From Candidatus Acetothermia bacterium (GTDB lineage: Bacteria; Bipolaricaulota; Bipolaricaulia; RBG-16-55-9; DRXL01), in contig JACOSB010000160.1 of NCBI GenBank assembly GCA_016179105.1, positions 164 to 64,163 of the forward strand: 64,000 nucleotides of DNA, in the 5' to 3' direction. The notes under the pieces are model-generated. The model did not search any database. It was not told the DNA's origin and saw nothing but the letters and a program-made list of their open reading frames with translations. A program made the translations under genes and the position numbers. Below, one piece after another: positions 8,680 to 43,018 of this stretch; position 1 is the stretch's first letter; each line of letters opens with the position of its first letter.

Positions 8680-10479
8680 ATGCGTACCAAACTGTCACTC
8701 CTGGTTATCGCTCTGATTTTTTATTTGTTCAGTGCAGGGGCAGCACAACCGGCTCTTTCCCCTTGCCCGCCCGCTCCAGCGCGCACCTTATTGCCCGGCG
8801 GTAGCGGTGAAGGGCAACAGTCCACGTCATTTTTGCAGCTCACGATTCAGCAGAAAGCCAAGGGGCTTGGTCCCTGTCGCGTCGGCCAAGAGCTGACGCT
8901 GAACGCCGTCGTTGCCTCTCTCGGAGCGATTGACCCGGATCAAGTACAATTTCTCATCGACGGTGCCCCCTTTCGCAACAGGCGCTTCACCTCCAGAGGA
9001 CCAGTTTCCACGGTCGGCCCACAACTCTTGGGTATTCAAGACAGCTGGACCGCAACGCCTTCCGAAAACATCAGCCATGAGATCAGCGCTTGTTTGAGCC
9101 TAAGCCCAAACCCTCCTCCTCTGTGCAGCACTTCTACGATTGATGTGCTTCGCATTGAGCTAAGAGAGGGAGTGGACTTCGCTCCCGGCATACTCTTGGT
9201 CAAGTTCAAACCGGGCGTAAGCTCCGGGGCGATTCAAGAGACGATCCGCCGTCTCAACACAACTCAAATCAGCTTCATCGCGTTCATTGAAGTTTATGTT
9301 TTGAGAATCACAGATGCCCAATCAGTGCTGCAGAAAATAGACGCCTTTCGGCGTGACTCAAACGTCCAGTACGCAGAACCCGACGGTTATTGGTATGCCC
9401 AGCAACAAATACCCAATGACCCGCAATTTTCAAAACAATGGAACCTTCGCAATCTCCCGACAGAGCATCCCTGCACTCGCAACGACATCACCGACGTTTT
9501 GTGGAATACGTTCTCACCACCCTTTCTCGACTGCAATCAGAAGGGCAAAGAGAAAGCCGACATCAGAGCCATGGACTTATGGGGACAATTTTCTAATAAC
9601 CAATTTAGCCAGGCGGTCACTGCAGCCGTCCTCGACAGCGGCATCGCCATACACCCGGACTTGGAAGCAAACGTCATCCGCACAGAGTCCAAAATTTTTA
9701 TAGACCCAAAGCTCAACGCTCCTGAAGACCAAGACACCAATATTTATGACACTTATGGGCATGGAACGTTTGTCGCGAGCATCATGGCCGCGTTGGGGAA
9801 CAACGGTCTCGGTCTCACGGGAATACTTTTTAATACCAAAGCCAAAGTCTGGCCTCTCAAAGTGAGCAAGAGTGGAAAACTCTTGTGGACTGACTTCGCT
9901 AATGCGATCGCCTACGTGCTCACACAAAAGACCCCAGCGAACATTCGCGTGATCAATCTCAGCTATGGCGGCATGAGGTCTGAGAGCTTGAGTAATGCCC
10001 TGGATCGTGTGAAAGAAGCCGGTTTACTCTTCATCACTTCTGCGGGAAACTATAAGCAAGACCTCGATCAAAAACCCTTTTACCCGTGCAGTTACGAGCG
10101 CGAGAATAAGAACGAGAATATCCTCTGCGTCGCCGCTTCGGACGATAAAGATCAACTATGGAGCGAATCCAGTTTTGGAGCTAAATCTGTCGATTTGGTT
10201 GCTCCTGGAGTAGACATCTTGGGGCTAATTCCCGAGGGATTGTCCTTGCCCGCGGGACGAAAATCGGCAGATTCTTCTTCGATCTTCGTGGGCAGCGGGA
10301 CTTCCTTTGCGGCCCCCCATGTGACGGCCGTCGTCGCTAGTCTGTGGGCGCGTTGCCCCACGGCGAGCGCGACGGTCATCCGGCGTATCCTGCTCGATGG
10401 AGTGGAGAAGCTTCATTTGCAGGCGCAAGTCGCCAGCGGAGGCCGCCTGCGCTGGCCGGAGAAAGTGAGCTGTAACTAG
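8680..10479 (+). CDS. Secreted subtilisin-like serine protease (peptidase S8) with an I9-like propeptide
   Basis: RBS AGGAGG then ATG. Signal peptide MRTKLSLLVIALIFYLFSAGAA. Catalytic-triad motifs are AVLDSGI (Asp), HGTFVASIMAA (His) and GTSFAAPHVTAVVASL (Ser). The in-frame extension to 8266 was rejected. Confidence 0.85.
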   Translation: MRTKLSLLVIALIFYLFSAGAAQPALSPCPPAPARTLLPGGSGEGQQSTSFLQLTIQQKAKGLGPCRVGQELTLNAVVASLGAIDPDQVQFLIDGAPFRNRRFTSRGPVSTVGPQLLGIQDSWTATPSENISHEISACLSLSPNPPPLCSTSTIDVLRIELREGVDFAPGILLVKFKPGVSSGAIQETIRRLNTTQISFIAFIEVYVLRITDAQSVLQKIDAFRRDSNVQYAEPDGYWYAQQQIPNDPQFSKQWNLRNLPTEHPCTRNDITDVLWNTFSPPFLDCNQKGKEKADIRAMDLWGQFSNNQFSQAVTAAVLDSGIAIHPDLEANVIRTESKIFIDPKLNAPEDQDTNIYDTYGHGTFVASIMAALGNNGLGLTGILFNTKAKVWPLKVSKSGKLLWTDFANAIAYVLTQKTPANIRVINLSYGGMRSESLSNALDRVKEAGLLFITSAGNYKQDLDQKPFYPCSYERENKNENILCVAASDDKDQLWSESSFGAKSVDLVAPGVDILGLIPEGLSLPAGRKSADSSSIFVGSGTSFAAPHVTAVVASLWARCPTASATVIRRILLDGVEKLHLQAQVASGGRLRWPEKVSCN

Positions 10480-10532
10480 TAGGGGCAGACCTACGTGTCT
10501 GCCCAAGGGCGAACACAAAGGTTCGCCCCTAC
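10479..10532 (+). repeat. Palindromic element, family A copy 1 (outer stem GTAGGGGC...GCCCCTAC with two inner hairpins)
   Basis: GTAGGGGCAGACCTACGTGTCTGCCCAAGGGCGAACACAAAGGTTCGCCCCTAC. It overlaps the TAG stop of the protease gene. Confidence 0.75.
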
Positions 10533-10564
10533 TCTGGTTTGTGAATTTGAGAAAGTGATCTCCC

Positions 10565-11464
10565 ATGCAATTACTCGAACAAGCGGCCCACTCCGGATGG
10601 ACGGCTGAGCTCAAAGAGAAATTTGTACATGCCTACGACCGACAGATCGGGCGATCGGTCTTAACTCTCTTGGCGCAGTATGGGCTCATCTCTAGCGCGC
10701 GAGAACTTAGCCTCTTGCGGCAGCATATAGAGTTGCGATTGGAGGGCAAGGCCAAAGCCAGCTCGAGCGAGCGGGTGGATCTTTTATGTGACGTCTACGT
10801 GAAAACCTATCACGAAGTCTTTCAAGAGCGCTTTGTGAAACGCTGGCTTTCTCAAGATCATGCTGCCGAGAGTTCTTTTGAACGCTATCTGCACGGCCTC
10901 ATCCGACACCAATTCTTCGCGGCCTTGGGCAAAGAAGATCTTTCCGAGAAAGAGCTCTTGGACCGGATCGTCCAGAGCAAGCGCGCCGAGACAAAAGAAA
11001 CCCATTTGCGGGAGGCCAAGTCGCGTCTCTGGGAGCGCGCAAGAGCCGCTCTGCTCTGTGTATCCACTCACGAGCTAGTACACCACCACGATGTTTTTGT
11101 AGGGGCAACCCCCCGTGGTTGCCCTCAAACTGGGCAGGCACAGGGGCCTGCCCCTACCATGAATAATCAACATAGTCGAGTACTGGAGCCTCAAGAAGCC
11201 CATCAGTTAGCAACCCAGGTTGATCGCCACATAGACGCGATCACGCACTATTTTTTCGAATGCTTCCTGCCCGAGCGTTATCCCCAGTTGATGGTGACCG
11301 CTCACGGCTCAAGCTTCGAGCGTTTGCTGGAATCTTTCCGTCAAGAACACTATCGACCGGGAAAGCTGAGCGATGAGATTCTCAACTACCGAGGGCGTTT
11401 GTCGCGTCGCCCGCCAGTGCGTCTCGTGGCCGGAGTTGAAGAAGATGAAGGAGATGACCAATAA
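10565..11464 (+). CDS. Hypothetical protein, 299 aa, with a possible divergent sigma-70/ECF-like N-terminal half. An in-frame palindromic-element insertion sits at codons ~179-198, so it may be a fusion of two genes.
   Basis: A region-4-like segment THLREAKSRLWERARAAL resembles the ECF sigma 4.2 motif. Family A palindrome 11099-11157 lies inside the ORF, encoding VGATPRGCPQTGQAQGPAPT. A TAG in the +1 frame at 11076-11078 sits about 20 nt before the palindrome, as stop codons do at the other copies. Confidence 0.4.
   Translation: MQLLEQAAHSGWTAELKEKFVHAYDRQIGRSVLTLLAQYGLISSARELSLLRQHIELRLEGKAKASSSERVDLLCDVYVKTYHEVFQERFVKRWLSQDHAAESSFERYLHGLIRHQFFAALGKEDLSEKELLDRIVQSKRAETKETHLREAKSRLWERARAALLCVSTHELVHHHDVFVGATPRGCPQTGQAQGPAPTMNNQHSRVLEPQEAHQLATQVDRHIDAITHYFFECFLPERYPQLMVTAHGSSFERLLESFRQEHYRPGKLSDEILNYRGRLSRRPPVRLVAGVEEDEGDDQ
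11099..11157 (+). repeat. Palindromic element, family A copy 2, located inside an ORF
   Basis: GTAGGGGCAACCCCCCGTGGTTGCCCTCAAACTGGGCAGGCACAGGGGCCTGCCCCTAC has the same architecture as copy 1: an outer 8-bp stem plus two inner hairpins. Confidence 0.75.
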
Positions 11465-11473
11465 TGAGGGACT

Positions 11474-11890
11474 ATGGACGACTGGGCACGCGAGTTGCGC
11501 TTGATCGTGTGGGATGGACTCTTGCGAGGCAACCCACCGAACGCGAACGACTCCGAACAGTTACAGAAACTCTGGGCTGCGCGCGAGACGCTGGGCGAAT
11601 CGAGCCGACAGGCACTACGCCTCTGTTTGGCTTGTCTCGCGTTGGCACAGGACGCATCGCCGGCGCTCCGCGAAGAGCTACGAATTTTTATAGCGTACTA
11701 TTTGAGTCGCGACGGCAGCGCTCCTATCAAGAGCCTGCCCGAGCCTCAATCTTCCCAAGAGTTGACTCTCGAGCGCTTGCGTGGACGCGAGATGAGCTGG
11801 GAGCAGATTTTTCAAATCTTTGGGCGCACGGCCAATCCCGATCGCGTGCGAAAACTCTTGCACGAGCAGCTCGATCGCGTGGGGGCGTGA
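11474..11890 (+). CDS. Hypothetical protein (138 aa)
   Basis: ORF sits 10 nt after the preceding stop, with no recognisable motif. It is probably co-transcribed with the flanking genes. Confidence 0.45.
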   Translation: MDDWARELRLIVWDGLLRGNPPNANDSEQLQKLWAARETLGESSRQALRLCLACLALAQDASPALREELRIFIAYYLSRDGSAPIKSLPEPQSSQELTLERLRGREMSWEQIFQIFGRTANPDRVRKLLHEQLDRVGA

Positions 11891-11896
11891 TTAAAA

Positions 11897-12409
11897 ATGT
11901 CCTCTGAAGATATTTTCGAGCAGAGTTTGCGTGGGGAACTGCGTGAGATCGCTCACTCCAGTCACCCTTCCTTCGCGATGCTTTTCAGCCACGCCCAACA
12001 GAATCTAGAAGCATCTCAACAGGGTTCACTCATGGCGCATGTGGTGAGTTGCGCGCGCTGTCAACGCGAGCTACAGACAATTCGGGAGGAACTGACTGTC
12101 TTGGATCAGGCGCTGCCCCAGTTTCTTCGCCAGAGCATGGAAGAGAAACCCAGTCCAGTGATACGGGAGACCAACCTCTGGCAAAGATGGTGGCAAAGTA
12201 TTCGTGCTCATCCATTTTTCTATGTTCATGTGAGCACCTACGCAGCAGCGGCGGCTGTGCTGATCGCTTTCAACCGAAGCCAGATGTGTTTCCCAACTCC
12301 ATCGATCGGGTGTCCGCAAAGTTCGGTGTCTTGGTGGGTCCAGTGGTTTTTAGTGCCGTGGGGGTTATTGCTTGCGGCACATATTTGGAAAACCTTCAAG
12401 AATCGTTAA
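11897..12409 (+). CDS. Putative anti-sigma factor with a zf-HC2-type zinc finger and a C-terminal transmembrane segment
   Basis: HVVSCARCQRELQ (H-x3-C-x2-C) resembles zf-HC2 of ChrR/RsrA-like anti-sigmas. Hydrophobic stretches FFYVHVSTYAAAAAVLIAF and WFLVPWGLLLAAHIW are present. A terminator hairpin GCCTTCTGAATGTCCGAAGGC follows the stop. Confidence 0.45.
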   Translation: MSSEDIFEQSLRGELREIAHSSHPSFAMLFSHAQQNLEASQQGSLMAHVVSCARCQRELQTIREELTVLDQALPQFLRQSMEEKPSPVIRETNLWQRWWQSIRAHPFFYVHVSTYAAAAAVLIAFNRSQMCFPTPSIGCPQSSVSWWVQWFLVPWGLLLAAHIWKTFKNR

Positions 12410-12596
12410 AGTGTTAAGAACGTCTAATACTGTTTTGCCTTCTGAATGTCCGAAGGCTGGCGTTACCAGATCAGCATTTTTCGCCCATCTATCACGACAT
12501 GATCAATGCAAAACAGTATAACAGAACCGATAAGAGATTCGCTATTGGCTTTTAGCAATTGGCCGTTAGTTGACACAGCCAATAGCCAACAGCCCT

Positions 12597-13019
12597 TCAC
12601 CCCACCATCTCGCTCTCTTTGAAGAAGAGTGCGACCTCGCGTTTAGCTGATTCCGGCCCATCGGAACCGTGTATCAAATTTTTTGTCAGATCGAGGCCGT
12701 AGTCGCCGCGGATCGTGCCGGGCGTGGCGTTGAAAGGGTTGGTCGCGCCCATCATCGCGCGCACGACGCTGATCGCATTGGGACCTTGCACGACCATCGC
12801 CAAGGCGGGTCCGTCCGTGACAAACTTGACCAATTCTTTGAAGAACGGTTTTTCTTTGAGCTCTGTATAATGCGTCTCGGCTAATTTTTTGTCGATTCGG
12901 ATCAGCCTCGCTGCGATGATTCTCAGATTCTTCTTCTCCAAGCGACTGATCAACTCTCCCACCAAGCGACGCTCGACCGCGTCGGGTTTGAGCATCACAA
13001 ATGTCTTCTCGTTCACCAT
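12597..13019 (-). CDS. ndk: Nucleoside diphosphate kinase
   Basis: FVMLKPDAVERRLVGELISRLEKK...NLIHGSDGPESAKREVALFF carries the canonical NDK motifs. Confidence 0.95.
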   Translation of the reverse strand: MVNEKTFVMLKPDAVERRLVGELISRLEKKNLRIIAARLIRIDKKLAETHYTELKEKPFFKELVKFVTDGPALAMVVQGPNAISVVRAMMGATNPFNATPGTIRGDYGLDLTKNLIHGSDGPESAKREVALFFKESEMVG

Positions 13020-13072
13020 AAATGCTCCCTCTTATGAGTTTAGTCAGAATGCGCTCTAAGGCCCGCAACTCA

Positions 13073-13124
13073 CCGCAGAGACGCCCAAAGATTTTCTTGG
13101 CGACCTTGGCGGCTTGGCGGTTCT
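13073..13124 (-). repeat. Family B dispersed repeat, copy 1 (three CGCCAAG heptads then AGAAAATCT...CTCTGCG)
   Basis: Reverse complement is gaaCCGCCAAGcCGCCAAGGtCGCCAAGAAAATCTtTGGgcgtCTCTGCGg. It is about 90% identical to 25616-25667. It lies between the dnaN stop and the ndk start. Confidence 0.7.
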
Positions 13125-13127
13125 GTC

Positions 13128-14258
13128 TCAAAAATCCATACGAATGGGCATGCAGACGTACAGAAAGCCGCGATCGTCTTCGCTGTCGCTCGGCTCGAGC
13201 AGACCGGCGCTCTCGGCATCGGCCAGCCAGAGGGTCACTTCATCAGACTTCACGCGCTTGAGTGCATCGATCAGATACTCGGCTCGGAACGAAATTTTCA
13301 CTTCGCTGATCTTCTTCTTGAGTTCAAGCGTCTCTTGCGCCTCACCCTTCTCGGCCGCTTGCGAGCTAAGCTGCAGCTTCGTGCCCGACGCGTTCAGAAT
13401 CACGGCATCGGACTCTTCGGCCGCTGTAATCTGCGCGCGCTGGAGCGCATTCAAAAAAACTTGGCGATCGAGCAGCAGTCCAATCGTGTTGTCACGTGGG
13501 ACTACTTTATCAAAGTCAGGATACTCTTCATCAATCAGCCGGGCGACAAAAACGACCGGACCCGACTTAAAGAAGAGATAATTGTCGGACTGATATAATT
13601 CTACTTGCTCGGCTTTGAGCTGCGAGAGAATGCTCGCGAGGTCTCGCAGCGAATCGGCAGCAGCGAGAAATTCTCCCTCGACGTTCGCCGCGCTCTCCAA
13701 CTTTTCTTCTTTAAGTGCGAGCCGATAACCGTTCGTCGCGACCATCTTGAGCGAATTTTTCTCTAAGACTAAGTCGACGCCCGTGAGACTCAAACGGGAT
13801 GTGTCGCGCGCCATGTGCGCCGAGAATGTCGTCAATTCCAGGGCACGCTCGAGCTGAGGCTTCGCGAGCTGACAGATGCGTTTACCCGGCAGGGTAGGGA
13901 TTTCGGGATAGTCTTCTTTAGGCAGCATGAAGAGATCGAAGGTCGCGCCGCCGCAGACGATCTCGACTTTGCCGGTGCCCTTGACGATCTTCATCGTCAA
14001 TTTATCGGCGGGAAGGGTGTTAGCGATTTTTGAAAGCAATTCGCCGTTCAGGACGACGACTTCGTCGCCGCCCGAATTCTCGATCGGGACCGAGCACCAG
14101 ATCGCTCGCTCCAAGTCGGTCGCGTACAGATTCAATTGATTGCCTTGAGTTTCTAGCTTGATGCCGGTAAGAATCGGCATGCTGGTGGCACGTCCCAGAG
14201 CACGACCAGCGACCTTGACTCCGAAAACCATCTCATCTCGGCCGCAAGAGAATTCCAT
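13128..14258 (-). CDS. dnaN: DNA polymerase III beta subunit (sliding clamp)
   Basis: 376 aa with ...NQLNLYATDLE..., ...VCMPIRMDF C-terminus and three-domain length. Confidence 0.9.
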   Translation of the reverse strand: MEFSCGRDEMVFGVKVAGRALGRATSMPILTGIKLETQGNQLNLYATDLERAIWCSVPIENSGGDEVVVLNGELLSKIANTLPADKLTMKIVKGTGKVEIVCGGATFDLFMLPKEDYPEIPTLPGKRICQLAKPQLERALELTTFSAHMARDTSRLSLTGVDLVLEKNSLKMVATNGYRLALKEEKLESAANVEGEFLAAADSLRDLASILSQLKAEQVELYQSDNYLFFKSGPVVFVARLIDEEYPDFDKVVPRDNTIGLLLDRQVFLNALQRAQITAAEESDAVILNASGTKLQLSSQAAEKGEAQETLELKKKISEVKISFRAEYLIDALKRVKSDEVTLWLADAESAGLLEPSDSEDDRGFLYVCMPIRMDF

Positions 14259-14874
14259 ACTGTTCCCCCTTTTCGCGAATCTTTTCCATCATCATATTCG
14301 TGAGCTGCTCGACGCTCTGCGTGGCATCTAAGTGCAAGCCGTCTTCATTGAGCTGGGCGATCTGCTCCCAATATGCCGAGCGCACGCGCTGCAAAAATTC
14401 AAGCCCCGCGATCTCCATGCGGTCTCGCTGCCCGCGCTTACGCTGTAACGCTAGCTCTACCGGCAGGTCGAGCAAGACTGTGAGATCGGGCTTGAGCCCG
14501 CCGGTCGCCAACTCATTCAGCGTTTCGATCAGCTCTAAACTCAACCCGCGCCCGTACCCTTGATACGCAACGCTCGACATCGTAAAGCGATCCGCCAGCA
14601 CGATTTTTTTAGATTCGAGCGCCGGCCGGATCACCGTCTGGACCAATTGGTGCCGCGAGGCTTCGAAGAGAAATAATTCAGCCACAGGCTCCAGTTGCAA
14701 CGTCTTGTCGAGTAACGTGTGGCGAATTTTATCCCCCGCGGGTGTTCCTCCTGGCTCCTCGACCGTGACGACATCGTGGCCACATTGTACCAAGTTTTGC
14801 TTCACCCGTCGCATCAGAGTCGACTTGCCGCTGCCGTCAATCCCCTCGAGCGCGACGAAGAGCCCGCGACTCAT
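14233..14874 (-). CDS. tmk: Thymidylate kinase
   Basis: FVALEGIDGSGKST P-loop and the DRF..S motif. It overlaps dnaN by 26 nt. Confidence 0.9.
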   Translation of the reverse strand: MSRGLFVALEGIDGSGKSTLMRRVKQNLVQCGHDVVTVEEPGGTPAGDKIRHTLLDKTLQLEPVAELFLFEASRHQLVQTVIRPALESKKIVLADRFTMSSVAYQGYGRGLSLELIETLNELATGGLKPDLTVLLDLPVELALQRKRGQRDRMEIAGLEFLQRVRSAYWEQIAQLNEDGLHLDATQSVEQLTNMMMEKIREKGEQYGILLRPR

Positions 14875-15371
14875 AGACTGCCCGTGGTCTCGTTGCTGGA
14901 GGCTTCTTGGGGTTCTTCTCGGCGTTTGAGCAAACTTAGAACGACGAGCCCCGTGCCGACCACGATCGCGGTATCCGCCACGTTAAAGACTGGGAAGTTG
15001 AAATGGGGAAGATAGCTGAAGTGCAAAAAATCGATGACATAACCGTAGTGAAACCGATCGATGAGATTCCCGATCGCACCGCCAGCAATCAGAACGAGCC
15101 CGGACTTAAGCGTCCTGTCCTGCACCCGTCCCGAAAAGAGCGCCCCTAGAATACCGATGCTGATGAGCGAAGCGACGAGCGTGATCCAGTTTCCGGCTTC
15201 TTCGTTATTCTGGAAGACGCCGAAGGCTCCTCCGTGATTATGCGCTTGCGTGATCTGAAAAAATCTTCCCCACACTTCGATGGACTCGCCCTGCTCCACC
15301 GATCGTACGATGAAAAATTTGCTAAGTTGGTCAACTAAAGTGACGACGGTAACCCACATTAATCCGTTCAT
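14871..15371 (-). CDS. lspA: Lipoprotein signal peptidase II
   Basis: 166 aa membrane protein with ...FNVADTAIVVG... and NLIDR motifs. It overlaps tmk by 4 nt. Confidence 0.85.
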   Translation of the reverse strand: MNGLMWVTVVTLVDQLSKFFIVRSVEQGESIEVWGRFFQITQAHNHGGAFGVFQNNEEAGNWITLVASLISIGILGALFSGRVQDRTLKSGLVLIAGGAIGNLIDRFHYGYVIDFLHFSYLPHFNFPVFNVADTAIVVGTGLVVLSLLKRREEPQEASSNETTGSL

Positions 15372-15410
15372 AAATATTACGTGCGAGTATAGACAAAAAA
15401 GCTCTTAAAA

Positions 15411-16828: not shown

Positions 16829-16974
16829 GGAGACTTTTCATCTTTCGCCTTGGAATCACGGAACGCCCTGAAAGACTACACAGAAAACGCGGAAGAAAGG
16901 CAAGCCGTTTTCCGTGTTTTCAGTGATGTGTTTTCGATTCAGAATCATGCGAACAAAAAGGAAGAAAAAACGGG

Positions 16975-17047
16975 CGGTCCCAACGGGATTTGAACCCGTG
17001 TTTACGCCTTGAGAGAGCGTCGTCCTAGGCCGCTAGACTATGGGACC
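16975..17047 (-). tRNA. tRNA-Glu (anticodon CUC)
   Basis: Cloverleaf: GGTCCCA|TA|GTCT..GGAC|G|ACGCT-CTCTCAA-GGCGT|AAAC|ACGGG-TTCAAAT-CCCGT|TGGGACC|G. U33 and A37 are present. CCA is not encoded. Confidence 0.7.
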
Positions 17048-17140
17048 GGACTGTTTTCAGCGAAAAGATGCTTTAATATAGCAAATGCAGCCCAGAGGGT
17101 CAAGGTGAATCGAGCCAGCAGTTCTTGTTTTTCGTAGCTG

Positions 17141-17167
17141 TTCTTGGCGCTCTTCGCGTCTTGGCGG
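17141..17167 (-). repeat. Family B-related repeat fragment (CCGCCAAGACGCGAAGAGCGCCAAGAA) upstream of the tRNA-Ser promoter
   Basis: Reverse complement matches the 45586-45620 variant GCCAAGGCACGAAGAGCGCCCAGAAAAATCT. Confidence 0.5.
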
Positions 17168-17168
17168 T

Positions 17169-17197
17169 TTGATGAGAGAGAACTCGACTGTTATAAT
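17169..17197 (+). promoter_or_regulatory. Sigma-70-type promoter for tRNA-Ser (TTGATG -17 nt- TATAAT)
   Basis: -35 at 17169-17174, 17-nt spacer, -10 TATAAT at 17192-17197. The tRNA starts 13 nt downstream. Confidence 0.6.
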
Positions 17198-17209
17198 CTC
17201 TTGCCATCG

Positions 17210-17297
17210 GGAGGGATGACCGAACGGTAAGGAACTGGTCTCGAAAACCAGCACGGCCCAAAAGGCCTTCCGGGTTCGAATCCCGGTCCCTCCGCCA
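17210..17297 (+). tRNA. tRNA-Ser (anticodon CGA), with CCA encoded
   Basis: GGAGGGA acceptor. Anticodon stem CTGGT/ACCAG with loop CTCGAAA. Long variable arm CACGGCCCAAAAGGCCTT. T-arm CCGGG-TTCGAAT-CCCGG. 3' GCCA. Confidence 0.85.
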
Positions 17298-17338
17298 AAC
17301 AAAAACATTCCACACCGTTTGAGCTAGCTTTTTTTTGG

Positions 17339-17367
17339 TTGACGCGCGCTCGTGAAATCGCTAAACT
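17339..17367 (+). promoter_or_regulatory. Sigma-70-type promoter for tRNA-Arg (TTGACG -17 nt- TAAACT)
   Basis: -35 at 17339-17344, -10 at 17362-17367. It is preceded by a T8 run after tRNA-Ser. Confidence 0.5.
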
Positions 17368-17379
17368 ACTCTCACACAT

Positions 17380-17456
17380 GCGCCCGTAGCTCAGCGGATT
17401 AGAGCGTTGGCCTGCGGAGCCAAAGGTCGGAGGTTCAATTCCTCCCGGGCGTACCA
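17380..17456 (+). tRNA. tRNA-Arg (anticodon reads GCG), with CCA encoded
   Basis: GCGCCCG acceptor. D-stem GCTC/GAGC. Anticodon stem TTGGC/GCCAA with loop CTGCGGA. T-arm GGAGG-TTCAATT-CCTCC. An encoded G34 for Arg is unusual in bacteria, where ACG is normal. Confidence 0.7.
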
Positions 17457-18976: not shown

Positions 18977-19003
18977 GTAGGGGCGAGGTAACCTCGCCCC
19001 TAC
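18977..19003 (+). repeat. Palindromic element, family A copy 3 (perfect 13-bp palindrome GTAGGGGCGAGGT-A-ACCTCGCCCCTAC)
   Basis: Read directly. It sits between the copC2 stop and the copCD start. Confidence 0.8.
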
Positions 19004-34200: not shown

Positions 34201-37200
34201 TTGCTCATCAATCAAGATATTGAAAAGCGGCGCGCTGAATTTGGCGCGGTTGTCCCCATGGGCTCTCCTGCCAAATCCTATCTCGGCGTTCCTTTGATCG
34301 TCGGTGATGAAGCCAAAGCCGTCATCACCTTGCAAAACATTGATCGCGAGAACGCTTTCACCGAATCCGACCTGCGTCTCTTACAGACACTCGCCAACAG
34401 CATGAGCGTCGCCCTCGAAAACGCCCGTCTCTTCGACGAGACTCAGCGCCTGCTCAAAGAGACCGAACAGCGCAACGCGGAACTGGCAGTCATTAACAGT
34501 GTCCAAACTGCGCTCGCCGCTGAACTCAACATGCAAGGCATCTACGACGCGGTAGGCGACAAGATCCGTGAGATATTCAATCAGGCAGATATCAACATCC
34601 GTATCTATGACCCCAAGACAAATCTAGTTCACTATCCATACGCATACGAAAATGGGAAACGCATCGCGATTGATTCGCGCCCGTTACGCGAAACCGGCTT
34701 CAATGCTCATGTCCTCCGCACCCGCGAGACATTGGTCATCAACGAGAACATGGCGCAAGAAATAGTAAAGTATGGCAGCTCCATCATCCTAGGCACACAA
34801 CTGGAAAAATCGGCTATGTATGTGCCGCTCGTGGCAGGCGATCAAGCGCGCGGGTTAATTGAAATCGGCGATTATCAACGCGAACACGTCTTTAGCGAAT
34901 CAGATGTCCGTCTCCTGCAAACCCTCGCCACTGCAATGAGCGTCGCGCTGGAAAACGCACGTCTGTTCGATGAGACTCAGCGCCTGCTCAAAGAGACCGA
35001 ACAGCGCGCTGCCGAACTCGCCATCATCAACAGCGTGCAAGAAGGACTCGCATCAAAGCTCGATATGCAGGCGATTTACGATTTGGTGGGCGACAAGATT
35101 CGCGAGATTTTCGACGCACAAGCGGTAACGATCGCCACCTTTGATCTCGAAAAAGAGATGGGTTATCAGCGCTATAGCATCGAAAAGGGTCAGCGCTTTT
35201 ACTCCGAGCCGGCACGATACGGTAATATTGCCAAGCAACTGATCGCCACTCGCCAGCCCGTGCTTTACCAAACCCGCCAGCAACTCATCGCAACGGGTGT
35301 CGGCGTCGCTCCTGGGACGGAGCCATCCAAGTCCGCCGTGTATGTGCCGCTCGTCGTCGGCGATGTGGTGAAGGGCGCGATAAGTTTGCAAAACGTTGAT
35401 CGCGAGTACGCGTTCACCGAATCGGATGTGCGCCTATTACAAACCTTTGCCAACAGCATGAGCGTCGCCCTCGAAAACGCACGGCTCTTCGACGAGACCC
35501 AGCGCCGAGCGCAGGAAATGTCAGCACTGATCGAAGTAGGTCGTGACATCTCGGCAACGCTCGATCCGACGACAGTCTTGGAACGCATCGCACGTCACGC
35601 ACGCGATCTTTTGCAGGTCAGTGATTGTGCCGTCTTCTTACCCGATGAAACGGGGCAGGCGATGAAGGCCTTCGTCGCGCTTGGACCCATCGCTGCGCAA
35701 ATCAAAGCGATGACGATTCAATTCGGCGCGGGCATTATCGGCAGCATCTGGAAGACGGGAGCCGCCGAAGTCATCAACGATGCGAGCCAAGATCCGCGCG
35801 GCGTAAAGATCGCTGGGACTGAGGATAAATCTGATGAAAAACTGATGGTCGCGCCGTTGTTATCGGGTGATAAAGTGATCGGCTTAATGTCGGTCTGGAG
35901 ATCGGGCGGCGATCGTTTTTTCGAGGACGATCTAATATTCTTGATGGGCTTGGCTCGCCAAGCTACCATCGCCATTCAGAATGCACGTCTCTTCAATGAA
36001 ATCCAGGCGCGCAACCGTGACATCACCGAAGCCTTGGAACAACAAACCGCAACCAGCGAAATCCTGCGCGTCATCGCCAGTTCTCCGACAGACGTGCAAC
36101 CCGTGCTCGAAACGGTTGCGCGGCACGCAGTGAAACTGTGTGATGCGGTATTTTGCGGCGTGTATCGAGTGCAGAACGGAATAGTTTCTCTCGGGGCACA
36201 GTACAATTTGACGCCGGAGGTGGTTGAAGAACTCAACCGCGTACTGCCTGCACCGATCGAGAGCGCACCTAGTATCTCTGCTGAAGCGGTGCGTCGCCAA
36301 ACAATCATTCACATTGCAGACATCGAAAACGAACCCACCGTACCCTCGTGGACGCTTCGAGTCGCGCGGAAGCTAGGGTATAAGAGCATTGTTGCCATCC
36401 CAATGTTGCGGGAGGGTGAGGTCCTCGGTGCCATCACGGTCGCCAGACGCGAAGCAGGGAATTTCACGGATAAACAGATCGCTCTCCTGCAAACCTTCAC
36501 CAATCAAGCGGTCATCGCCATCGAAAATATACGACTATTCAATGAGGTGAAGAACCAGAGACAATTCTTGGAAGCAGTGATCGCCAACAGCCCTGCTGCG
36601 ATTGCGCTCATCGGAAGAGATGCAATAATCAGGGGATGGAATCTGGCTGCTGAAAAATTGTTCGGTTATACCGAAACAGAAGCCCTCGGCCGCAATATTG
36701 ACGATCTGATCGCCTATAGAGAAGAGGTGCGTTTCGAAGCCCTTCACTATACGAATCAAGCCCTCACCGAGAACCGATTCCATATTATCACGAAGCGTGT
36801 CCGTAGAGATGGTAGCTTCGTCGATGTGGAAATATCGGTCTTGCCCATCAACCCTGCCAATCTGAACGAGGGATTTGTTGTTATCTATCACGACATCACC
36901 GAACTCCAGCGCGCGCGCCAAGAAGCGATCGCGGCCAATGAAGCGAAGAGCGCCTTCTTGGCAACGATGAGCCACGAGATTCGCACTCCGATGAACGCCG
37001 TCATCGGAATGAGCGGCCTACTGATGGACACTGATCTCACCCGAGAACAGCACGAGTATGCCGAGACAATCCGCAACTCCAGCGATACGCTTTTAACTAT
37101 CATCAATGATATATTGGACTTCAGCAAGATCGAGGCCGGGAAGATGGAATTGGAGCATCAGCCCTTCGATGTGCGCGAGTGCGTTGAGTCGGCACTGGAC

Positions 37201-38517
37201 TTGGTCGCGGGGCGCGCCGTCGAGCGCGGACTCGATCTGGCGTATCTGATTGATGACGAGGTGCCCAGCGTCGTGCGCGGCGATGTCACGCGCGTGCGTC
37301 AGATTTTGCTCAACTTACTGAGCAACGGAATCAAGTTCACTGATCATGGCGAAGTAGTCGTTGAAGTGAAGCGCGGACAAGCTGCCAATGAGTTGCTCTT
37401 CTCGGTGCGCGATACCGGCATCGGCATCTCACCCGAGGGCATGAAGCGGCTCTTCCAGTCTTTTAGTCAAGCCGACTCGTCGACGACGCGCAAATACGGT
37501 GGTACGGGCTTAGGCTTGGCCATCAGCCGAAAACTTGCGGACATGATGGGCGGTACGATGTGGGCCGAGAGCAAGGGTGTGCCGGGCAAAGGGTCTACTT
37601 TCTTCTTCACGATTAAAGCAGAGGTGGCAAAGTCAATTGTGAGTAAATCGGTGCGCAATCTGAGCAGCCTGCAGCCCGAAGTCGAGGGCAAGCGCATTCT
37701 CATTGTGGACGACAACGCGACCAACGGTCGCATCTTGGAAATACAGACGAAGAAGTGGGGCATGACTCCACGAGTGGCAAAATCGCCCAAGCAAGCGCTC
37801 AAGATTGTGAAGACGAAGAAAAAATTTGATCTGGCAATTTTGGATATGCACATGCCCGAGATGGACGGCATGGCGCTCGCGAAAGCGCTGCGAAAATTGC
37901 CCAGTGCCAAGAAATTGCCTTTGATCTTACTCACGTCGTTGGGGCGTCAAGGAACCAAAGAAAAAGTTTCAGCATTTGCAGCGTATCTCACCAAGCCGGT
38001 CAAGCCCTCACAACTCTTTGATGCGCTGGCGAGCGTTTTTGCTGGCGCGAAAACCAAGCAGCGTAAAGCAACTTTATCAAAGATTAAGACAGCGAAACAA
38101 AAATTCGATCCAAAGATTGCCAAGCGGCATCCTTTGCGGATCTTGCTCGCCGAAGACAACGTCGTCAACCAGAAAGTCGCGCTGCGCATTTTGGATCAGA
38201 TGGGCTATCGTGCCGATGTGGCGTCGAATGGTCTGGAAGCGATCGAAGCCGTCGAGCGTCAGCATTATGATGTGATCTTGATGGACGTGCAGATGCCCGA
38301 AATGGATGGGCTTGAAGCGACGCGGCGCATTGTCGCACGCTGGAGTAAAAAGAAGCGTCCGCACATCGTCGCGATGACGGCAAATGCGATGCAGGGCGAC
38401 CGCGAGATGTGCCTCGCTGCGGGCATGAATGATTACATCACCAAGCCCATTCGAGTCGATGAACTAATCGGCGCTCTGAACAACGTCACTCCCCAAAAGA
38501 GGAGAAATAATTTATGA
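31267..38517 (+). CDS. Giant hybrid sensor histidine kinase with 10 tandem GAF domains, a PAS domain, HisKA, HATPase_c and two receiver domains
   Basis: 2416 aa. Ten GAF units are each bounded by L(E/Q)NARLF(D/N)E(T/V)Q linkers. HisKA: [23 protein letters not shown]. HATPase: [15 protein letters not shown]...[13 protein letters not shown]1: [10 protein letters not shown]...[13 protein letters not shown]2: [10 protein letters not shown]...[11 protein letters not shown]. Confidence 0.9.
31363..35520 (+). repeat. Intragenic array of near-identical ~150-200-nt repeats (GAF linker plus GAF N-terminus) with a ~0.6-kb period
   Basis: gagactcagcgcctgctcaaagagaccgaacagcg...atcatcaacag(c/t)gtgcaag...ctcgatatgcaagcgatttacgatttggtgggcgacaagattcgcgagat recurs at ~32880, 33960, 34440 and 34975 with over 85% identity. 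Confidence 0.8.
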
Positions 38518-38867
38518 GCGACAGTGCTATAGATTTATCTGTGTTTAACAATCTGAAAGAGATGGTCGGCGAGGATTTTATCGGCGAGCTGATTGATACG
38601 TTTCTTGACGAGGCTCCGCAATTGATTGCTTCGATGCAAAAAGCTCTTCCTAAAAATGATGTTGAGACGTTTCGCCGATCGGCTCATTCGCTTAAATCCA
38701 ACAGCGCGAGTTTTGGCGCGCACGCTTTATCCGACCAAGCCAAGGCGCTAGAAATGCTAGGACGAGCGGGCCAACTAAGCCAAGTCGGGGATAAGCTTGA
38801 GACTCTATCGGCTGAGTACAAAAAAGTAGAAGAAGTCTTGAAGAGATTGCGCCATGACTTCGAATAA
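38514..38867 (+). CDS. Histidine phosphotransfer (Hpt) protein
   Basis: 117 aa. FRRSAHSLKSNSASFGA is the Hpt phospho-His motif. The start overlaps the kinase stop (ATGA). Confidence 0.8.
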   Translation: MSDSAIDLSVFNNLKEMVGEDFIGELIDTFLDEAPQLIASMQKALPKNDVETFRRSAHSLKSNSASFGAHALSDQAKALEMLGRAGQLSQVGDKLETLSAEYKKVEEVLKRLRHDFE

Positions 38868-39909
38868 GATGCACGGGCCGGGACGATTATTAGTCGTCGA
38901 AGACAACAAGGTCAATCGCATTTTGCTTCTGCGCGGGCTGGAGCAACAGGGGCACGTGGTGACGGCTGTTGAAAACGGAAAACAAGCGTTGAAGCTCTTA
39001 CACAGCCAGCCTTTTGACATCGTTTTATTAGATATTGAGATGCCCGAAATGAATGGGTTCCAAGTCTTGGAAACGTGTCTGCAAGACACGCACCTGCGCG
39101 AGATCCCGATTATTATGACGTCGGCGATGGACGAGCTGGACAGCGTCGTCAAGTGCATTGAGATGGGAGCCGAAGACTATCTCACAAAGCCACTTAATAC
39201 AGTCTTGCTCCGGGCGCGAGTCAACGCGAGCCTTGAAAAGAAACGGTTGCGCGATCAGCAGCGCAAGCTCTTTGATACAGTAGCGACCAGCGAAGTCGCT
39301 GAAGAATTGATCAGCAAAGGATTTTCATTGGGCGGCAAACACGTGGACGCTTCGGTCATGTTCACGGACATTCGCTCTTTCACTTCGATTGCCGAATCGC
39401 AAGACCCCTCGGAGACAATGGAGTTGCTCAACACTTACTTTACGTTGATGTTCGAGCCCATCAAAGATCATGGTGGAATCGTCAACCAAATTGTCGGTGA
39501 TGAGATCATGGCCATTTTCGGTGCCCCGATTCCACGAGTCGATCATCGCGAGCAAGCGGTCTTTGCGGCGATCGAGATGCTCGAATTGTTAAAAGGCTTT
39601 AATCAAGAACAAGCGTTGCGCAATAGAGTACAAATTCAGATCGGTGTGGGGATTGCATCGGGTAGAGTTATTGCGGGATACACAGGTACCCAACAGCGCG
39701 CGATTTTCACTTGCATAGGGGATACGGTGAATGTGGCTTCGCGTATACAAGACCATACCAAAATTATTGGCCAGCCTCTTCTCATAAGCGAGAACACTCA
39801 GCAAAGCTTGCCCACGGCGCTTCACACCGAGCTATTGGACTCAATAGTCTTTAAGGGAAAGAGCCAACCCGTCTCAGTCTATAGCGTCAAGACGGAACCG
39901 GCGGATTAA
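38854..39909 (+). CDS. Response regulator with an N-terminal receiver domain and a C-terminal class III nucleotidyl cyclase (adenylate/guanylate cyclase, CHD) domain
   Basis: REC: LLVVEDNKVNR...LLDIEMPEMNG...KPL. Cyclase: VMFTDIRSFTSIAE...IVGDEIMAIFGAP...GIASGRVIAGYTG. It overlaps the Hpt gene by 14 nt. Confidence 0.85.
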   Translation: MTSNKMHGPGRLLVVEDNKVNRILLLRGLEQQGHVVTAVENGKQALKLLHSQPFDIVLLDIEMPEMNGFQVLETCLQDTHLREIPIIMTSAMDELDSVVKCIEMGAEDYLTKPLNTVLLRARVNASLEKKRLRDQQRKLFDTVATSEVAEELISKGFSLGGKHVDASVMFTDIRSFTSIAESQDPSETMELLNTYFTLMFEPIKDHGGIVNQIVGDEIMAIFGAPIPRVDHREQAVFAAIEMLELLKGFNQEQALRNRVQIQIGVGIASGRVIAGYTGTQQRAIFTCIGDTVNVASRIQDHTKIIGQPLLISENTQQSLPTALHTELLDSIVFKGKSQPVSVYSVKTEPAD

Positions 39910-40292
39910 CGCAAACTGACTGGCAAGTCGTGAGCAGAGGAGTGCGTTCCTCGATCGAAGGGTTCTTCGGGGAATTCCTCAAACGTCGCATCAAAGACTT
40001 TGACAAGTATTTCCGCAGTGCCCGCTACAAATTACGACGTGTGAAAGAATGGGTGAGAGTTTTTTTCTTGGTTCCACAAGCACTTTCGTTCAGGCGGTGC
40101 TCCCTTCTCTATTTGAACCGGCCCCTCCGTTGTGGGTCGAAATCACCGCTGGCAAGCGAACCAGAAAGATACATGCCGACAAAATGGTTCCCGAGAATAG
40201 TGCGCACTCCTGATAGTAATAGGTGCAGTATGGTATTGAGGTCGGGGTAAGGCGTAGGCTGAGTAACGCGAGCTGACACTGAGCCTCCCCTG

Positions 40293-41462
40293 CTAAGCTG
40301 CCCTCCTCACCGCGAGCGAAATCCCGTTCCCGCCGCCCATGCAGATCGTCGCGAGCCCTAACTCTGCGCCGCGATCCTTCATCGCCCAGACGAGCGTGCC
40401 GACAATGCGCGCTCCGCTGCAACCAATGGGGTGCCCGAGCGCGATCGCGCCACCGTTCACATTAACACGATCCCAGTCCCACTCCAGCTCCTTGCCATCT
40501 GCAAGCGTCTGTGATGCGAACGCTTCGTTCACTTCAATCAGATCAAACGCATTCACGTTGACCTTCATCTTGGCCATGAGTTTTCTCGTCGACTCAACCG
40601 GAGCATAGAAGAGATCGATCGGTGCGGTGCCTGCGACAGCGTAATCGACGATCGTCGCCAAGGGCTTATAGCCGCGCTTCTTCGCTTCTTCTTTGGAGCA
40701 AATCAAGAGTGCCGCAGCTCCATCATTCAACCCCGGCGCGTTGCCCGCTGTGACCGTGCTCCCATCTTTGAACGCGGGCTTCAGCTTGGCCAACTTTTCG
40801 ATCGTCGTATCCAGGCGCGGCGTCTCGTCTTGCTCGATGGGTCCGTCTTGAGCTTGCAAGGGAATCAGCTCGTTCTTAAATTTCCCATTTTGAATCGCTT
40901 TCACGGCCTTCATGTGGCTCTGATAGGCAAAACGATCCTGCTCCTCGCGCGAGATTTTAGACTTAGTGGCTGTGTACTCGGCGGCATCACCCATGATCTT
41001 CCCATCGAATGACGACCAGAGCCCATCGATTACGATCGAGTCCACTAATTTTTGGTCGCCGTATTTAAGCCCAGAACGAGCACCCTTGAGTAAATAGGGC
41101 GCATTGCTCATGCTCTCCATGCCCGCCGCGATGACTATCTTCGCGTCGCCGGCTTTGATTGCTTGGGCTGCGAGCAAGATCGCTTTCATGCCCGAGCCGC
41201 AAACTTTGTTCACAGTAAGGGCTGGTACAGACGGAGAGATTCCACCTTTGATGCTCGCTTGACGCGCCGGGGCCTGACCGACGCCCGCCTGGACAACGTT
41301 CCCGATTATGACTTCGTCCACTTCGTCGCCCTTTAAGCTATTTCTGTCTTTAATGGCTTTGATCGCCGCTGCGCCCAAATCCGTTGCGCTGAATTGCGCA
41401 AGTTTTCCCTGAAATCGTCCCATCGGCGTGCGCACGGCATCGACAATCACCACTTCAGCCAT
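40293..41462 (-). CDS. Acetyl-CoA C-acetyltransferase (thiolase II)
   Basis: [13 protein letters not shown]..., [11 protein letters not shown] (active-site Cys) and a C-terminal [11 protein letters not shown]...CMGGGNG. Confidence 0.9.
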
Positions 41463-42501
41463 TTCGTTTCACACTCCTTTGTAACTTACGTTTCCCCACG
41501 TTCTTCGCTCGACCATTTTCTGCTAAACTCATCTTCGCTGGCACAGTTTCTAGAACGTTAGAAAGAGTTGAGCACAGTTCGCCGTTCACATAGAGCTCAA
41601 AAACATCAGGGCGCCCGTAGTGCCCAACTGGATCGAACCGAGATCGTTCTTCATACACTTTTTCGAGATCGATCTCCGCATACAAAATGCTTTCATCGTT
41701 CCACAAGGGGCCAGCCAAGAATTTCCCATTGGGTCCAATGATCGCCGTCGTCCCAAACTGCATCTGTTTGCCCTTGTATTTTTCTAAATCTTTGCGCAGC
41801 TCGAAATCTTTCGGGAGGCTATCAATCTTCAAAATAGGCGAGACTGGGATCACGTACATCCGGTTCTCGAACGCGATGTGCTGCATCGCAGCGAGCCAGT
41901 TTTCGGTGTCGTCAGCCGTCGGTGCAACATAAATCTGAACGCCTTGGGCATAGAGCGCATAGCGCGCTAAGGGCATGAAATTTTCCCAACAGATCAAGCC
42001 ACCGATGCGACCCAGCTCGGTCTCATAAACTTTGAGATCGGTCCCGTCGCCGCGGCCCCAGATCATCCGCTCGTGATAGGTTGGCACGAGTTTTCGATGT
42101 GTACCGAAAATCTCTCCCGCTTTGCCGAAATAGATAATCGTATTGTAGAGAGTACCCGAATGCTTTATATCCCGTTCATTCACACCCATGACCACGATCG
42201 CTTTCGCTTTGCGCGCAGCCTGGCCGAGCGCGCGAGTCTCCGATCCGGGGATCTCGACAGAGTTTTTGTAGAGCCGCGCATAGGCTTTCTTTAACGGAGC
42301 ATATTCATAGCCGCCCGAGCAGAATGCAGTCCAAAACGGGTAGATGGGCAAAAACGCTTCGGGAAAGACAATCAGCTCAGCGCCTTCGTCGGCCGCTGCT
42401 TCGATGAGCTTGATCGCTTTCTCCAGCGATGCATCGAGGTCGAGCAAGACCGGCTCGGCCTGAACTGCAGCGACCTTGTACTTGGGAAACTTTAATGACA
42501 T
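41455..42501 (-). CDS. Carbon-nitrogen hydrolase (nitrilase / aliphatic amidase family)
   Basis: VAAVQAEPV...LIVFPEAF (Glu), ...K... and GGLICWENFMP (Cys) form the catalytic triad of the nitrilase superfamily. Confidence 0.8.
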   Translation of the reverse strand: MSLKFPKYKVAAVQAEPVLLDLDASLEKAIKLIEAAADEGAELIVFPEAFLPIYPFWTAFCSGGYEYAPLKKAYARLYKNSVEIPGSETRALGQAARKAKAIVVMGVNERDIKHSGTLYNTIIYFGKAGEIFGTHRKLVPTYHERMIWGRGDGTDLKVYETELGRIGGLICWENFMPLARYALYAQGVQIYVAPTADDTENWLAAMQHIAFENRMYVIPVSPILKIDSLPKDFELRKDLEKYKGKQMQFGTTAIIGPNGKFLAGPLWNDESILYAEIDLEKVYEERSRFDPVGHYGRPDVFELYVNGELCSTLSNVLETVPAKMSLAENGRAKNVGKRKLQRSVKRNG

Positions 42502-42504
42502 CGC

Positions 42505-42942
42505 TCAGCCTTTGGAGTTGATCTCATATTCATAAGAAATCTTGCTCTTCATCGTGGTGGAGACCGTGCAATATTTTTCGAGCGACAGCTCGATCGCTTT
42601 CTTGAACTTCTCTTCGTCGATCTCCTCACCCCAGATGCGATAGATAATTTTCACAGTATCAATGAATGTTGGGTACTCCGTGGTCTTATGTCCGTCCAAA
42701 TCAATCTCCAAGCGATCGAAGCGCACGCGCTGTTTGGTGAGAATCGAGACGACGTCCATACCCGAGCATGACCCTTGCGCAACCAAGAGCAATTCCGTCG
42801 GGCGCGCTCCCGTGTCGTTTCCATGCCCTTCGACGGATGAATCTATCACGACAGAATGTCCACTGCCGCTGGTGCCGAGAAATTGCATGCCACCGGTGTA
42901 CCTCACGACTGCCGTTGCCATGACGCCTCCTTCGAAATTCAA
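42505..42942 (-). CDS. OsmC/Ohr-family peroxiredoxin-like protein
   Basis: ...ARPTELLLVAQGSCSGMDVVSIL...KYCTVS has the OsmC two-Cys signature. Confidence 0.8.
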   Translation of the reverse strand: MNFEGGVMATAVVRYTGGMQFLGTSGSGHSVVIDSSVEGHGNDTGARPTELLLVAQGSCSGMDVVSILTKQRVRFDRLEIDLDGHKTTEYPTFIDTVKIIYRIWGEEIDEEKFKKAIELSLEKYCTVSTTMKSKISYEYEINSKG

Positions 42943-42990
42943 AACTCGAACTCATTGTAACGAGAGGGTTTAGGGGGAACAACAAATATT

Positions 42991-43018
42991 GTAGGGGCGT
43001 AGCATGCTACGCCCCTAC
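42991..43018 (+). repeat. Palindromic element, family A copy 4 (GTAGGGGCGTAGCATGCTACGCCCCTAC)
   Basis: Perfect 11-bp arms around GCATGC, between the OsmC start region and the lactate-oxidase-like gene stop. Confidence 0.8.

Follow-up and report, generated by a model that had tools for sequence, protein, structure and literature searches.

Dispersed GTAG-tagged palindromes in Candidatus Acetothermia, probable members of a REP superfamily

Four short palindromic elements, here designated copies 1 to 4, are dispersed over a stretch of 64,000 nucleotides (nt) from Candidatus Acetothermia bacterium (Bipolaricaulota), positions 164 to 64,163 of contig JACOSB010000160.1, which is called the window in the following. 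Very probably, they are members of the GTAG-tagged superfamily of repetitive extragenic palindromes (REPs), that is, non-autonomous elements that would be processed as single-stranded hairpins by REP-associated tyrosine transposases (RAYTs). An earlier note on this DNA had described palindromes at 10479-10532, 11099-11157, 18977-19003 and 42991-43018, and all four are present there (Table 1). Copy 1 follows a subtilase gene, and its contact with a TAG codon, seen before, is explained by the stop codon of this gene (10477-10479), which abuts the element. Copy 3 lies between co-directional CopC/CopCD genes, 35 nt past a stop codon and 12 nt before the next ATG. Copy 4 is located 6 nt past the stop codon of a minus-strand gene for an FMN-dependent dehydrogenase (43025-44035); on its downstream side an OsmC gene, also on the minus strand, is found, so that copy 4 is upstream of the latter. 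Three copies had been thought to stand right after stop codons, which is wrong for copy 2. This element is spanned by an open reading frame (ORF) for 299 aa, so that it lies in frame within a gene and does not qualify as a post-stop repeat.

Table 1 Positions of the palindromic elements, their units and associated features
Feature	Position	Strand	Description
Copy 1, 54 nt	10479..10532	.	Head-to-head heterodimer of the REP type
Copy 1, left unit	10479-10504	+	GTAG GGGCAGAC ctacgt GTCTGCCC; followed by 2-nt spacer AA
Copy 1, right unit	10507-10532	tag on -	GTAG GGGCGAAC ctttgt GTTCGCCC
Copy 2, 59 nt	11099..11157	.	Head-to-head heterodimer of the REP type; translates in frame as VGATPRGCPQTGQAQGPAPT
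Copy 2, left unit	11099-11124		GTAG GGGCAACC ccccgt GGTTGCCC; followed by 7-nt spacer
Copy 2, right unit	11132-11157	tag on -	GTAG GGGCAGGC ccctgt GCCTGCCC
Copy 2 host gene	10565..11464	+	Conserved hypothetical protein, 299 aa (NCBI HYR54_17045); ORF reads straight through copy 2
In-frame segment, 108 nt (36 codons)	11075..11182	+	Copy 2 with flanks of 24 and 25 nt; from alignments
Copy 3, 27 nt	18977..19003	.	Single unit tagged on both strands, GTAG GGGCGAGG taa CCTCGCCC CTAC
Copy 4, 28 nt	42991..43018	.	Single unit tagged on both strands, perfect palindrome GTAGGGGCGTAGCA/TGCTACGCCCCTAC
RAYT genes with in-frame doublet AGAC+GAAC or AGAC+GCAC	L252 10280-10355; L253 10265-10454; L234 209-305; L228 1425-1450		Proteins P0015-P0134

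Tagged hairpin units in the window

Both strands of the window were scanned for the octamer GTAGGGGC, with 100 dinucleotide-preserving shuffles as background. Eight occurrences were detected, and all eight are arms of the four elements. In the shuffles the octamer occurred 0.68 times on average and four times at most, and none of them reached eight. For the paired pattern TAGGGGC-N(2-32)-GCCCCTA the expectation in the window is 0.00. Variants of the octamer with one mismatch are at chance level (38 versus 28 +/- 6 expected), and there is therefore no halo of degenerate copies. Perfect hairpins of the type GGGC-N4-loop-N4-GCCC are found six times, every one within the four elements, compared with 0.1 in shuffled sequence. 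A scan for GTAG in front of any perfect hairpin returned the same units plus one weak 6-bp chance match.

All elements can be described by one basic unit, GTAG directly before a GC-rich hairpin of the form GGGC-R-N3 / loop / N3-Y-GCCC. Six such units are present. In all of them GTAG directly precedes the stem at its outer side, the stem measures 8-9 bp without the tag, and the loop comprises 2-6 nt. One hairpin each makes up copies 3 and 4, with the layout GTAG-GGGC-N4-loop-N4-GCCC-CTAC. As their 3' side ends with CTAC, they can be read as a tagged unit on either strand. Copies 1 and 2 consist of two inverted units each, with tags pointing outward and spacers of 2 and 7 nt, respectively, giving the layouts GTAG GGGCAGAC ctacgt GTCTGCCC aa GGGCGAAC acaaag GTTCGCCC CTAC (copy 1) and GTAG GGGCAACC ccccgt GGTTGCCC tcaaact GGGCAGGC acaggg GCCTGCCC CTAC (copy 2). 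The four doublet units share an 8-bp stem and a 6-nt loop, C-N3-G-T on the tagged strand. Thus, what had been taken for an outer stem around unrelated inner hairpins in copies 1 and 2 is instead a pair of tagged units in inverted orientation. A T-rich 5' lead, also proposed as a family feature, is not one: in 255 + 135 units from elsewhere only a preference for pyrimidines at positions -1 and -2 was apparent. No 16-mer is common to the six units of the window.

Compared with shuffled sequences, all elements show strong folding (z-scores of -3.8 to -7.2). For the single copies, DNA folds of -16.8 kcal/mol (copy 3, z -7.2) and -14 kcal/mol (copy 4, z -6.5) were predicted, in which the tag pairs with the CTAC at the 3' side. 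Each doublet unit has its tag at a single end, and this tag is unpaired. Two alternative folds are available to the doublets, a pair of hairpins closed by GTAG/CTAC and one long hairpin that is imperfect, as its arms differ in their stems. This long form was predicted to have the minimum energy for both doublets as RNA and for copy 2 as DNA. For copy 1, values of -19.2 kcal/mol (two-hairpin DNA fold, z -5.0) and -37 kcal/mol (long-hairpin RNA fold, z -5.0) were obtained.

The ORF spanning copy 2 is identical to HYR54_17045, a protein without any Pfam match that is encoded on a contig of 65,957 bp in a metagenome-assembled genome (MAG) of Candidatus Acetothermia bacterium. An exact look-up of the CopCD protein sequence gave no record. 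In 11 of 11 homologues aligned over their full length (242-263 aa), a block of 36 residues, LVHHHDVF-VGATPRGCPQTGQAQGPAPT-MNNQHSRV, is missing. It is located in a poorly conserved linker between the two conserved halves of the protein. Accordingly, a "hypothetical protein" of 299 aa carries a repeat-derived insert of 36 aa. An extension of the inverted repeat into the 24- and 25-nt flanks was considered, but the approximately six weak pairs in the fold were not convincing.

With Rfam 15 at the gathering threshold, no match was obtained at the four elements, and only three tRNA genes were detected in the window. These tRNA genes, one on the minus and two on the plus strand, are clustered within 480 nt (16975-17453) and are unrelated to the repeats. 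The plus strand between 31267 and 38517 is occupied by a single ORF of 2,416 aa. Several other classes of small repeats were dismissed. The cyanobacterial HIP1 motif GCGATCGC occurs seven times versus 3.5 times expected and is not enriched, so that HIP1 or a cyanobacterial origin was dropped. The anatomy does not fit attC sites of integrons, because a GTTRRRY core is lacking, nor CRISPR, as there is no spacer array.

Related elements in strains and other genomes

Two close relatives allowed comparisons at individual sites, a sister strain represented by a Logan contig (L121) and a second MAG, HY230 (L254; GCA_016201315.1). L121 is near-identical in DNA over the end of the subtilase gene and the following gene, yet it is devoid of copies 1 and 2. 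At the site of copy 1 it has ten other bases, which form a 6-bp mini hairpin. Its subtilase gene ends with the identical TAG, and copy 1 therefore did not supply this stop codon. At the site of copy 2, 108 nt are absent, the 59-nt doublet together with its 24- and 25-nt flanks. The same 108 nt are missing in HY230, which is 99% identical to the window over 9 kb and keeps copy 3 at the orthologous site. There, the loop is the only difference, TAA in the window (18988-18990) and TTA in HY230 (7866-7868). TTA is the reverse complement of TAA, and either a point change or inversion of the entire palindrome could underlie the difference. In sum, two of three comparable sites differ between genomes with about 99% identity, strain-level evidence of quick turnover.

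The surroundings of copy 2 require caution. Between 10865 and 12427 the window is only 88-95% identical to HY230, compared with 99% over the next 9 kb, which suggests, as judged from the sequences, recombinational import of a diverged allele. The difference at copy 2 may thus reflect an imported allele rather than a fresh insertion. As for a target-site duplication at this position, only CGAG...CGAG was found, too short to be meaningful.

More distant Acetothermia loci (L125-L130), with 52-57% amino acid identity in the neighbouring gene, have kept the order of the subtilase gene, the copy 2 host gene, a 138-aa gene and a 2TM gene. The orthologous sites are empty, while the family is present elsewhere in these loci, with about one element per 7-10 kb. 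Stated per locus, two to three elements are found in 13-21 kb of related Acetothermia DNA, compared to four in the 64-kb window. The AGAC+GAAC doublet of copy 1 is among them at non-orthologous sites, with loops alone changed (L125 16155-16208 and L126 17877-17930). In another Acetothermia lineage among these loci (L128 and L130, 9800-10000), the gap that corresponds by orthology to the site of copy 1 extends over 200 nt and is filled with no fewer than five unrelated GC-rich hairpins, such as CCCCCTTCCCgaaaGGGAAGGGGG and GTGCCGCCaaaGGCGGCAC. Palindromes seem to accumulate at this intergenic site.

The earlier note had called for a wider pattern search, and further copies were indeed found: the same units are present at more than 240 loci in many phyla. 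A genome collection of 596 Gb was searched with GTAGGGGC-N(10-40)-GCCCCTAC, a pattern with a gap too short for the interior of copy 2 (43 nt), and metagenomes were scanned with the left unit of copy 1. Each search yielded at least 120 loci. Hosts among the matches listed include cyanobacteria, Chloroflexota, Acidobacteriota, Clostridia, Bacteroidales, Planctomycetales, Desulfobacterota and Methylobacter. When the window was compared by BLAST with the first 120 genome loci, no relative of the source genome was found among them. By our own arithmetic, about 4,300 chance matches to the pattern are expected in 596 Gb. That the matches are nevertheless not due to chance is indicated by their preferred length, their palindromy, the covariation of inner pairs and the presence of doublets in several phyla. 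Of 128 genome matches listed, 78 are 28 nt long, the most frequent length and that of copy 4, and 54 of these 78 are perfect palindromes. Among 46 distinct 28-mers from other phyla, the four unconstrained inner pairs are Watson-Crick pairs in 93-100% of cases, with two to four pair types each, and position 9 is always a purine. Head-to-head doublets account for 14 of the 128 genome matches listed and for many metagenome matches, and doublets of 48-56 nt are found in several phyla. In the metagenome matches listed to the left unit of copy 1, loops are mostly CYNYGT and partners mostly GGGCGAAC, GGGCGCAC or GGGCGGAC. Several Acetothermia and other genomes contain the AGAC+GAAC doublet as a whole, at different sites and with differences in the loops alone, and we infer that it is replicated as a unit.

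The tag is associated with further hairpins. In 712 kb of metagenome loci, GTAG precedes 84 of 560 other perfect 8-bp hairpins, where one in 256 is expected, and 69 of these 84 begin with GGGC. A count of intergenic versus genic placement, another suggestion of the earlier note, agreed with extragenic repeats: 30 of 100 and 17 of 64 elements are located in a long open frame, compared to 74% and 69% of random positions within these loci. Overall, about 70% of these 164 elements from other genomes are extragenic, against about 28% of random positions. A literature search on GTAGGGGC, the 12- to 13-mers of the units and the translated peptides produced irrelevant matches or none.

RAYT genes containing the repeat

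RAYT-like ORFs were detected in three of the 120 genome loci and seven of the 120 metagenome loci, all of which had been picked by the repeat alone. The deduced proteins match Pfam Y1_Tnp and reach 57-70 bits with the NCBIfam model NF047646, "REP-associated tyrosine transposase", which is below its equivalog cut-off of 80 bits. Many of their relatives carry the JGI label "REP element-mobilizing transposase RayT". The repeat is also present inside these genes, in frame and just past the HUH motif. In a Chloroflexi MAG (L252) and in the complete genome of a Candidatus Kapaibacterium (L253), the RAYT gene contains GTAG GGGCAGAC ctacgt GTCTGCCC, that is, the left unit of copy 1. The Kapaibacterium gene harbors two doublets and is flanked by about 11 more, of the types AGAC+GAAC/AAAC.

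A profile search for this clade retrieved at least 7,998 clusters at 90% identity, of which the best 120 sequences were inspected. In 82 of these 120, a segment VGADxxVCP ... GEHxGSPL follows the HUH motif and corresponds to the translated AGAC and GAAC units, a proportion biased upward because the query profile contained both peptides. The stretch between the two internal units is expanded by tandem repeats, resulting in segments of 29-122 aa among the best 120. None of these 120 proteins is labelled Acetothermia; they are from other phyla. At the sequence level, the same doublet is thus found within the coding sequence of a presumed transposase in many phyla. Annotators should be aware that VGADLRVCP, GEHxGSPL and similar peptides of predicted proteins result from translation of repeats.

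In a sister subclade, single palindromes are arranged in pairs. A palindrome is located about 40-100 nt upstream of the gene, and its interior is matched to each gene. One locus (L137, 8721-10266) contains two tandem RAYT genes, each with an internal, doubly tagged palindrome of 28 nt and an identical one upstream of the start codon. The interiors differ between the two genes, GGGCAATTC.. in one and GGGCGACCG.. in the other. At L028 (2668-3434), too, an internal and an upstream palindrome are identical to each other, with the upstream member about 100 nt before the RAYT start. The paired palindromes, 367-465 bp apart, bracket the N-terminal half of the RAYT gene bearing the HUH motif.

It is conceivable, though rather doubtful at present, that the elements of the window are dispersed members of a REP type with its reference copy built in frame into its own transposase gene. 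If so, the substrate of the enzyme would be part of its own coding sequence, allowing self-regulation or self-diversification, and the variable hairpin interior could act as a specificity code that assigns a single RAYT to every REP subfamily. The failure of surveys based on 16-mers to tie this RAYT group to REPs would likewise be explained. In the literature search, no paper with the sequences or peptides of the internal RAYT doublet was found. If not already described, such doublets would offer a handle on the choice of REPs by RAYTs and on the persistence of REPs.

Some neighbourhoods of these genes may be mentioned. In L252 (6815-13740), the RAYT gene separates hsdS from hsdR in a type I restriction-modification operon, and in L253 (1-9968) it follows GmrSD, SNF2-helicase and Eco57I-type genes, suggesting a possible link of the clade to defence islands. 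Three called "genes" in L253 (8836-9968 and 10793-11464) are translated arrays of REP doublets, resembling clusters known as bacterial interspersed mosaic elements (BIMEs), and are likely annotation artefacts.

Origin of the elements and comparison with known systems

The suggestion of the earlier note that the palindromes are miniature mobile elements of the REP type agrees with the GTAG tag, the GC-rich hairpins, the doublets, the intergenic bias, the polymorphism between strains and the linkage to RAYT genes elsewhere. By analogy to the RAYT systems of E. coli, Stenotrophomonas and Marinomonas, a unit would fold once the DNA is single-stranded, and a RAYT, an HUH/Y1 enzyme, would bind hairpin and GTAG, cut beside the hairpin and join strands, thereby creating, deleting or moving copies. 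Copies would persist where harm is small, either within a protein linker that tolerates them in frame or shortly after the stop codons of co-directional genes. Retained copies may secondarily serve as hairpins at 3' ends, with mRNA stabilisation or weak termination as possible consequences. For the Acetothermia source genome we infer mobility driven by a RAYT, and likewise any role at the RNA level, from these considerations.

A number of observations weigh against this interpretation. The inner stems differ among all six units, whereas the members of a classical high-copy REP family hardly differ from one another in the same genome. Pairing of GTAG with CTAC in copies 3 and 4 departs from the classical unpaired tag at one end. 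Hidden Markov model searches of the ORFs in the window and in Acetothermia loci totalling about 200 kb detected no RAYT gene. At the polymorphic sites of copies 1 and 2, neither a target-site signature nor a clean insertion junction is visible: the REP-less strain has ten other bases at the copy 1 site and not a clean empty site, and the polymorphic block at copy 2 exceeds the doublet by 49 nt. Allele replacement could explain the copy 2 polymorphism instead of transposition in situ. Finally, we know of no demonstration of RAYT-mediated REP transposition in vivo in any system.

Among other explanations, an origin in situ as intrinsic terminators or as hairpins that stabilise the 3' ends of mRNAs, with the shared GTAGGGGC reflecting a stem preference of the host, would account for the location of three of the four copies in short gaps behind co-directional genes and for folds far better than those of shuffled sequences. 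A simple terminator scan, requiring at least five T in eight, was passed by copies 3 and 4 in the direction of the genes (copy 4 on the minus strand), with AATTTCTAAT and AATATTTGTT as tails. However, these T-rich tails are weak, with barely five T in eight, copies 1 and 2 are not followed by a T tract, copy 2 is within a translated gene, and 12 nt separate copy 3 from the following start codon in an apparent operon. Moreover, tagged units are also present inside coding sequences of many phyla, including RAYT genes, near-identical strains differ by whole elements, and the conserved GTAG on the outer side of every unit is left unexplained. Terminators as the origin of the elements are therefore considered unlikely. 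The terminator-like function raised by the earlier note applies at best to copies 3 and 4, where terminator or RNA-stabiliser activity is possible as a by-product, and not to copies 1 and 2.

Even less can be said for operators of a dimeric protein that binds the inverted half-sites GTAGGGGC and GCCCCTAC in duplex DNA. The invariant, inverted outer 8 bp and the perfect palindromes among the 28-mers listed from elsewhere (54 of 78) would be compatible with such sites, but the distance between the half-sites varies from 11 to 43 nt in the window and from 10 to 40 nt among the matches listed elsewhere, the bases in between co-vary to keep the hairpin, which a duplex operator does not need, and the positions are behind or inside genes and not at promoters, without an adjacent promoter-like site. 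This interpretation is judged very improbable. The same applies to conventional miniature inverted-repeat transposable elements (MITEs), deletion derivatives of DDE-type insertion sequences moved via their terminal inverted repeats. They are likewise small, palindromic, dispersed and variable between strains, but with 27-59 nt the elements are below the usual MITE size, target-site duplications are lacking at the two polymorphic sites, no insertion sequence with matching ends was seen, and physical linkage to the units was observed for no transposase family other than the Y1/HUH RAYT clade. The coincidence of a common GC-rich octamer, feared in the earlier note, has nothing in its favour beyond the moderate G+C content of the window (0.47-0.57). 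With eight octamers versus 0.68 expected, all of them paired, a paired pattern not expected at all and one-mismatch variants at chance level, its probability is negligible. REP-type elements remain the best explanation.

GTAG REPs are described in several phyla, with 24 families including the SMAG repeats of Stenotrophomonas maltophilia (Di Nocera, De Gregorio & Rocco 2013, BMC Genomics 14:522, PMC3733652). According to that article, GTAG stands directly 5' of a GC-rich stem of 6-13 bp with a short loop, and the superfamily is defined by stems of 5-13 bp, loops of 2-20 nt and an unpaired tag at one end. The repeats occur as singles or as head-to-head, tail-to-tail and head-to-tail dimers, with head-to-head spacers of 1-5 nt, and heterodimers with different stems as well as complementary stem variants are on record there. 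They favour the space behind co-directional and convergent genes, overlap TAG stop codons, form in-frame intragenic dimers coding for 20-30 aa, and flank RAYT genes (PMC3733652). The window elements fit every sequence criterion tested, except for tag pairing in the single copies. The match is made at the level of the superfamily, not of one of its 24 families. The modular structure, which the earlier note had regarded as undescribed for REPs, is not new, because head-to-head dimers, REPIN- or BIME-like, and heterodimers are described for GTAG REPs (PMC3733652). The host does differ: neither Acetothermia nor Bipolaricaulota is among the phyla in the list of that article. A candidate phylum known mainly from MAGs thus joins the hosts of GTAG REPs.

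REP doublets, termed REPINs, form hairpins and are described as the replicating unit, together with their RAYTs (Bertels & Rainey 2011, PLoS Genet 7:e1002132; PMC3116915, PMC3337134). Copies 1 and 2 resemble REPINs in that two inverted REP units can form a single long hairpin, the structure proposed to be replicated by a single-copy RAYT. REPINs of Pseudomonas differ by spacers of tens of nt and near-identical copies, compared to spacers of 2 and 7 nt here. Only RAYT groups 2 and 3 have been tied to REPINs or to abundant flanking 16-mers (Bertels et al. 2017, PMC5581495), and the RAYT clade linked to the present repeat is neither of them. By host range it may correspond to group 4, which is common in Cyanobacteria, Chlorobia and Caldilineae and has few flanking 16-mers (PMC5581495). 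Diverse inner stems, as seen here, would explain these low 16-mer counts.

In work on the E. coli, Stenotrophomonas and Marinomonas enzymes, the only ones for which this has been demonstrated, RAYTs were found to bind REPs in single-stranded form, to depend on GTAG for cleavage and to cut at CT beside the hairpin (Corneloup et al. 2021, PMC8266576). With E. coli REPs, which are organised in BIMEs and recognised by TnpA-REP (RayT/YafM), the elements share the GTAG tag in front of a hairpin and the alternating orientation in clusters. TnpA-REP is a Y1/HUH enzyme that binds single-stranded REP and cuts beside it (PMC8266576, PMC3479197). E. coli REPs have longer, bulged stems in which the bulge is required, whereas the units here have short perfect stems like the group 3 REPs of Stenotrophomonas, and E. 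coli RayT is only a distant relative of the linked RAYT-like proteins (phmmer E = 1.9e-6). The in-frame location of copy 2 resembles that of Rickettsia palindromic elements and of intragenic REPs in Opitutus terrae, where palindromes are tolerated as an extra peptide. The Rickettsia elements belong to other families, CGTC-tagged or, as RPE-1, longer, and in the window one of four copies is intragenic.

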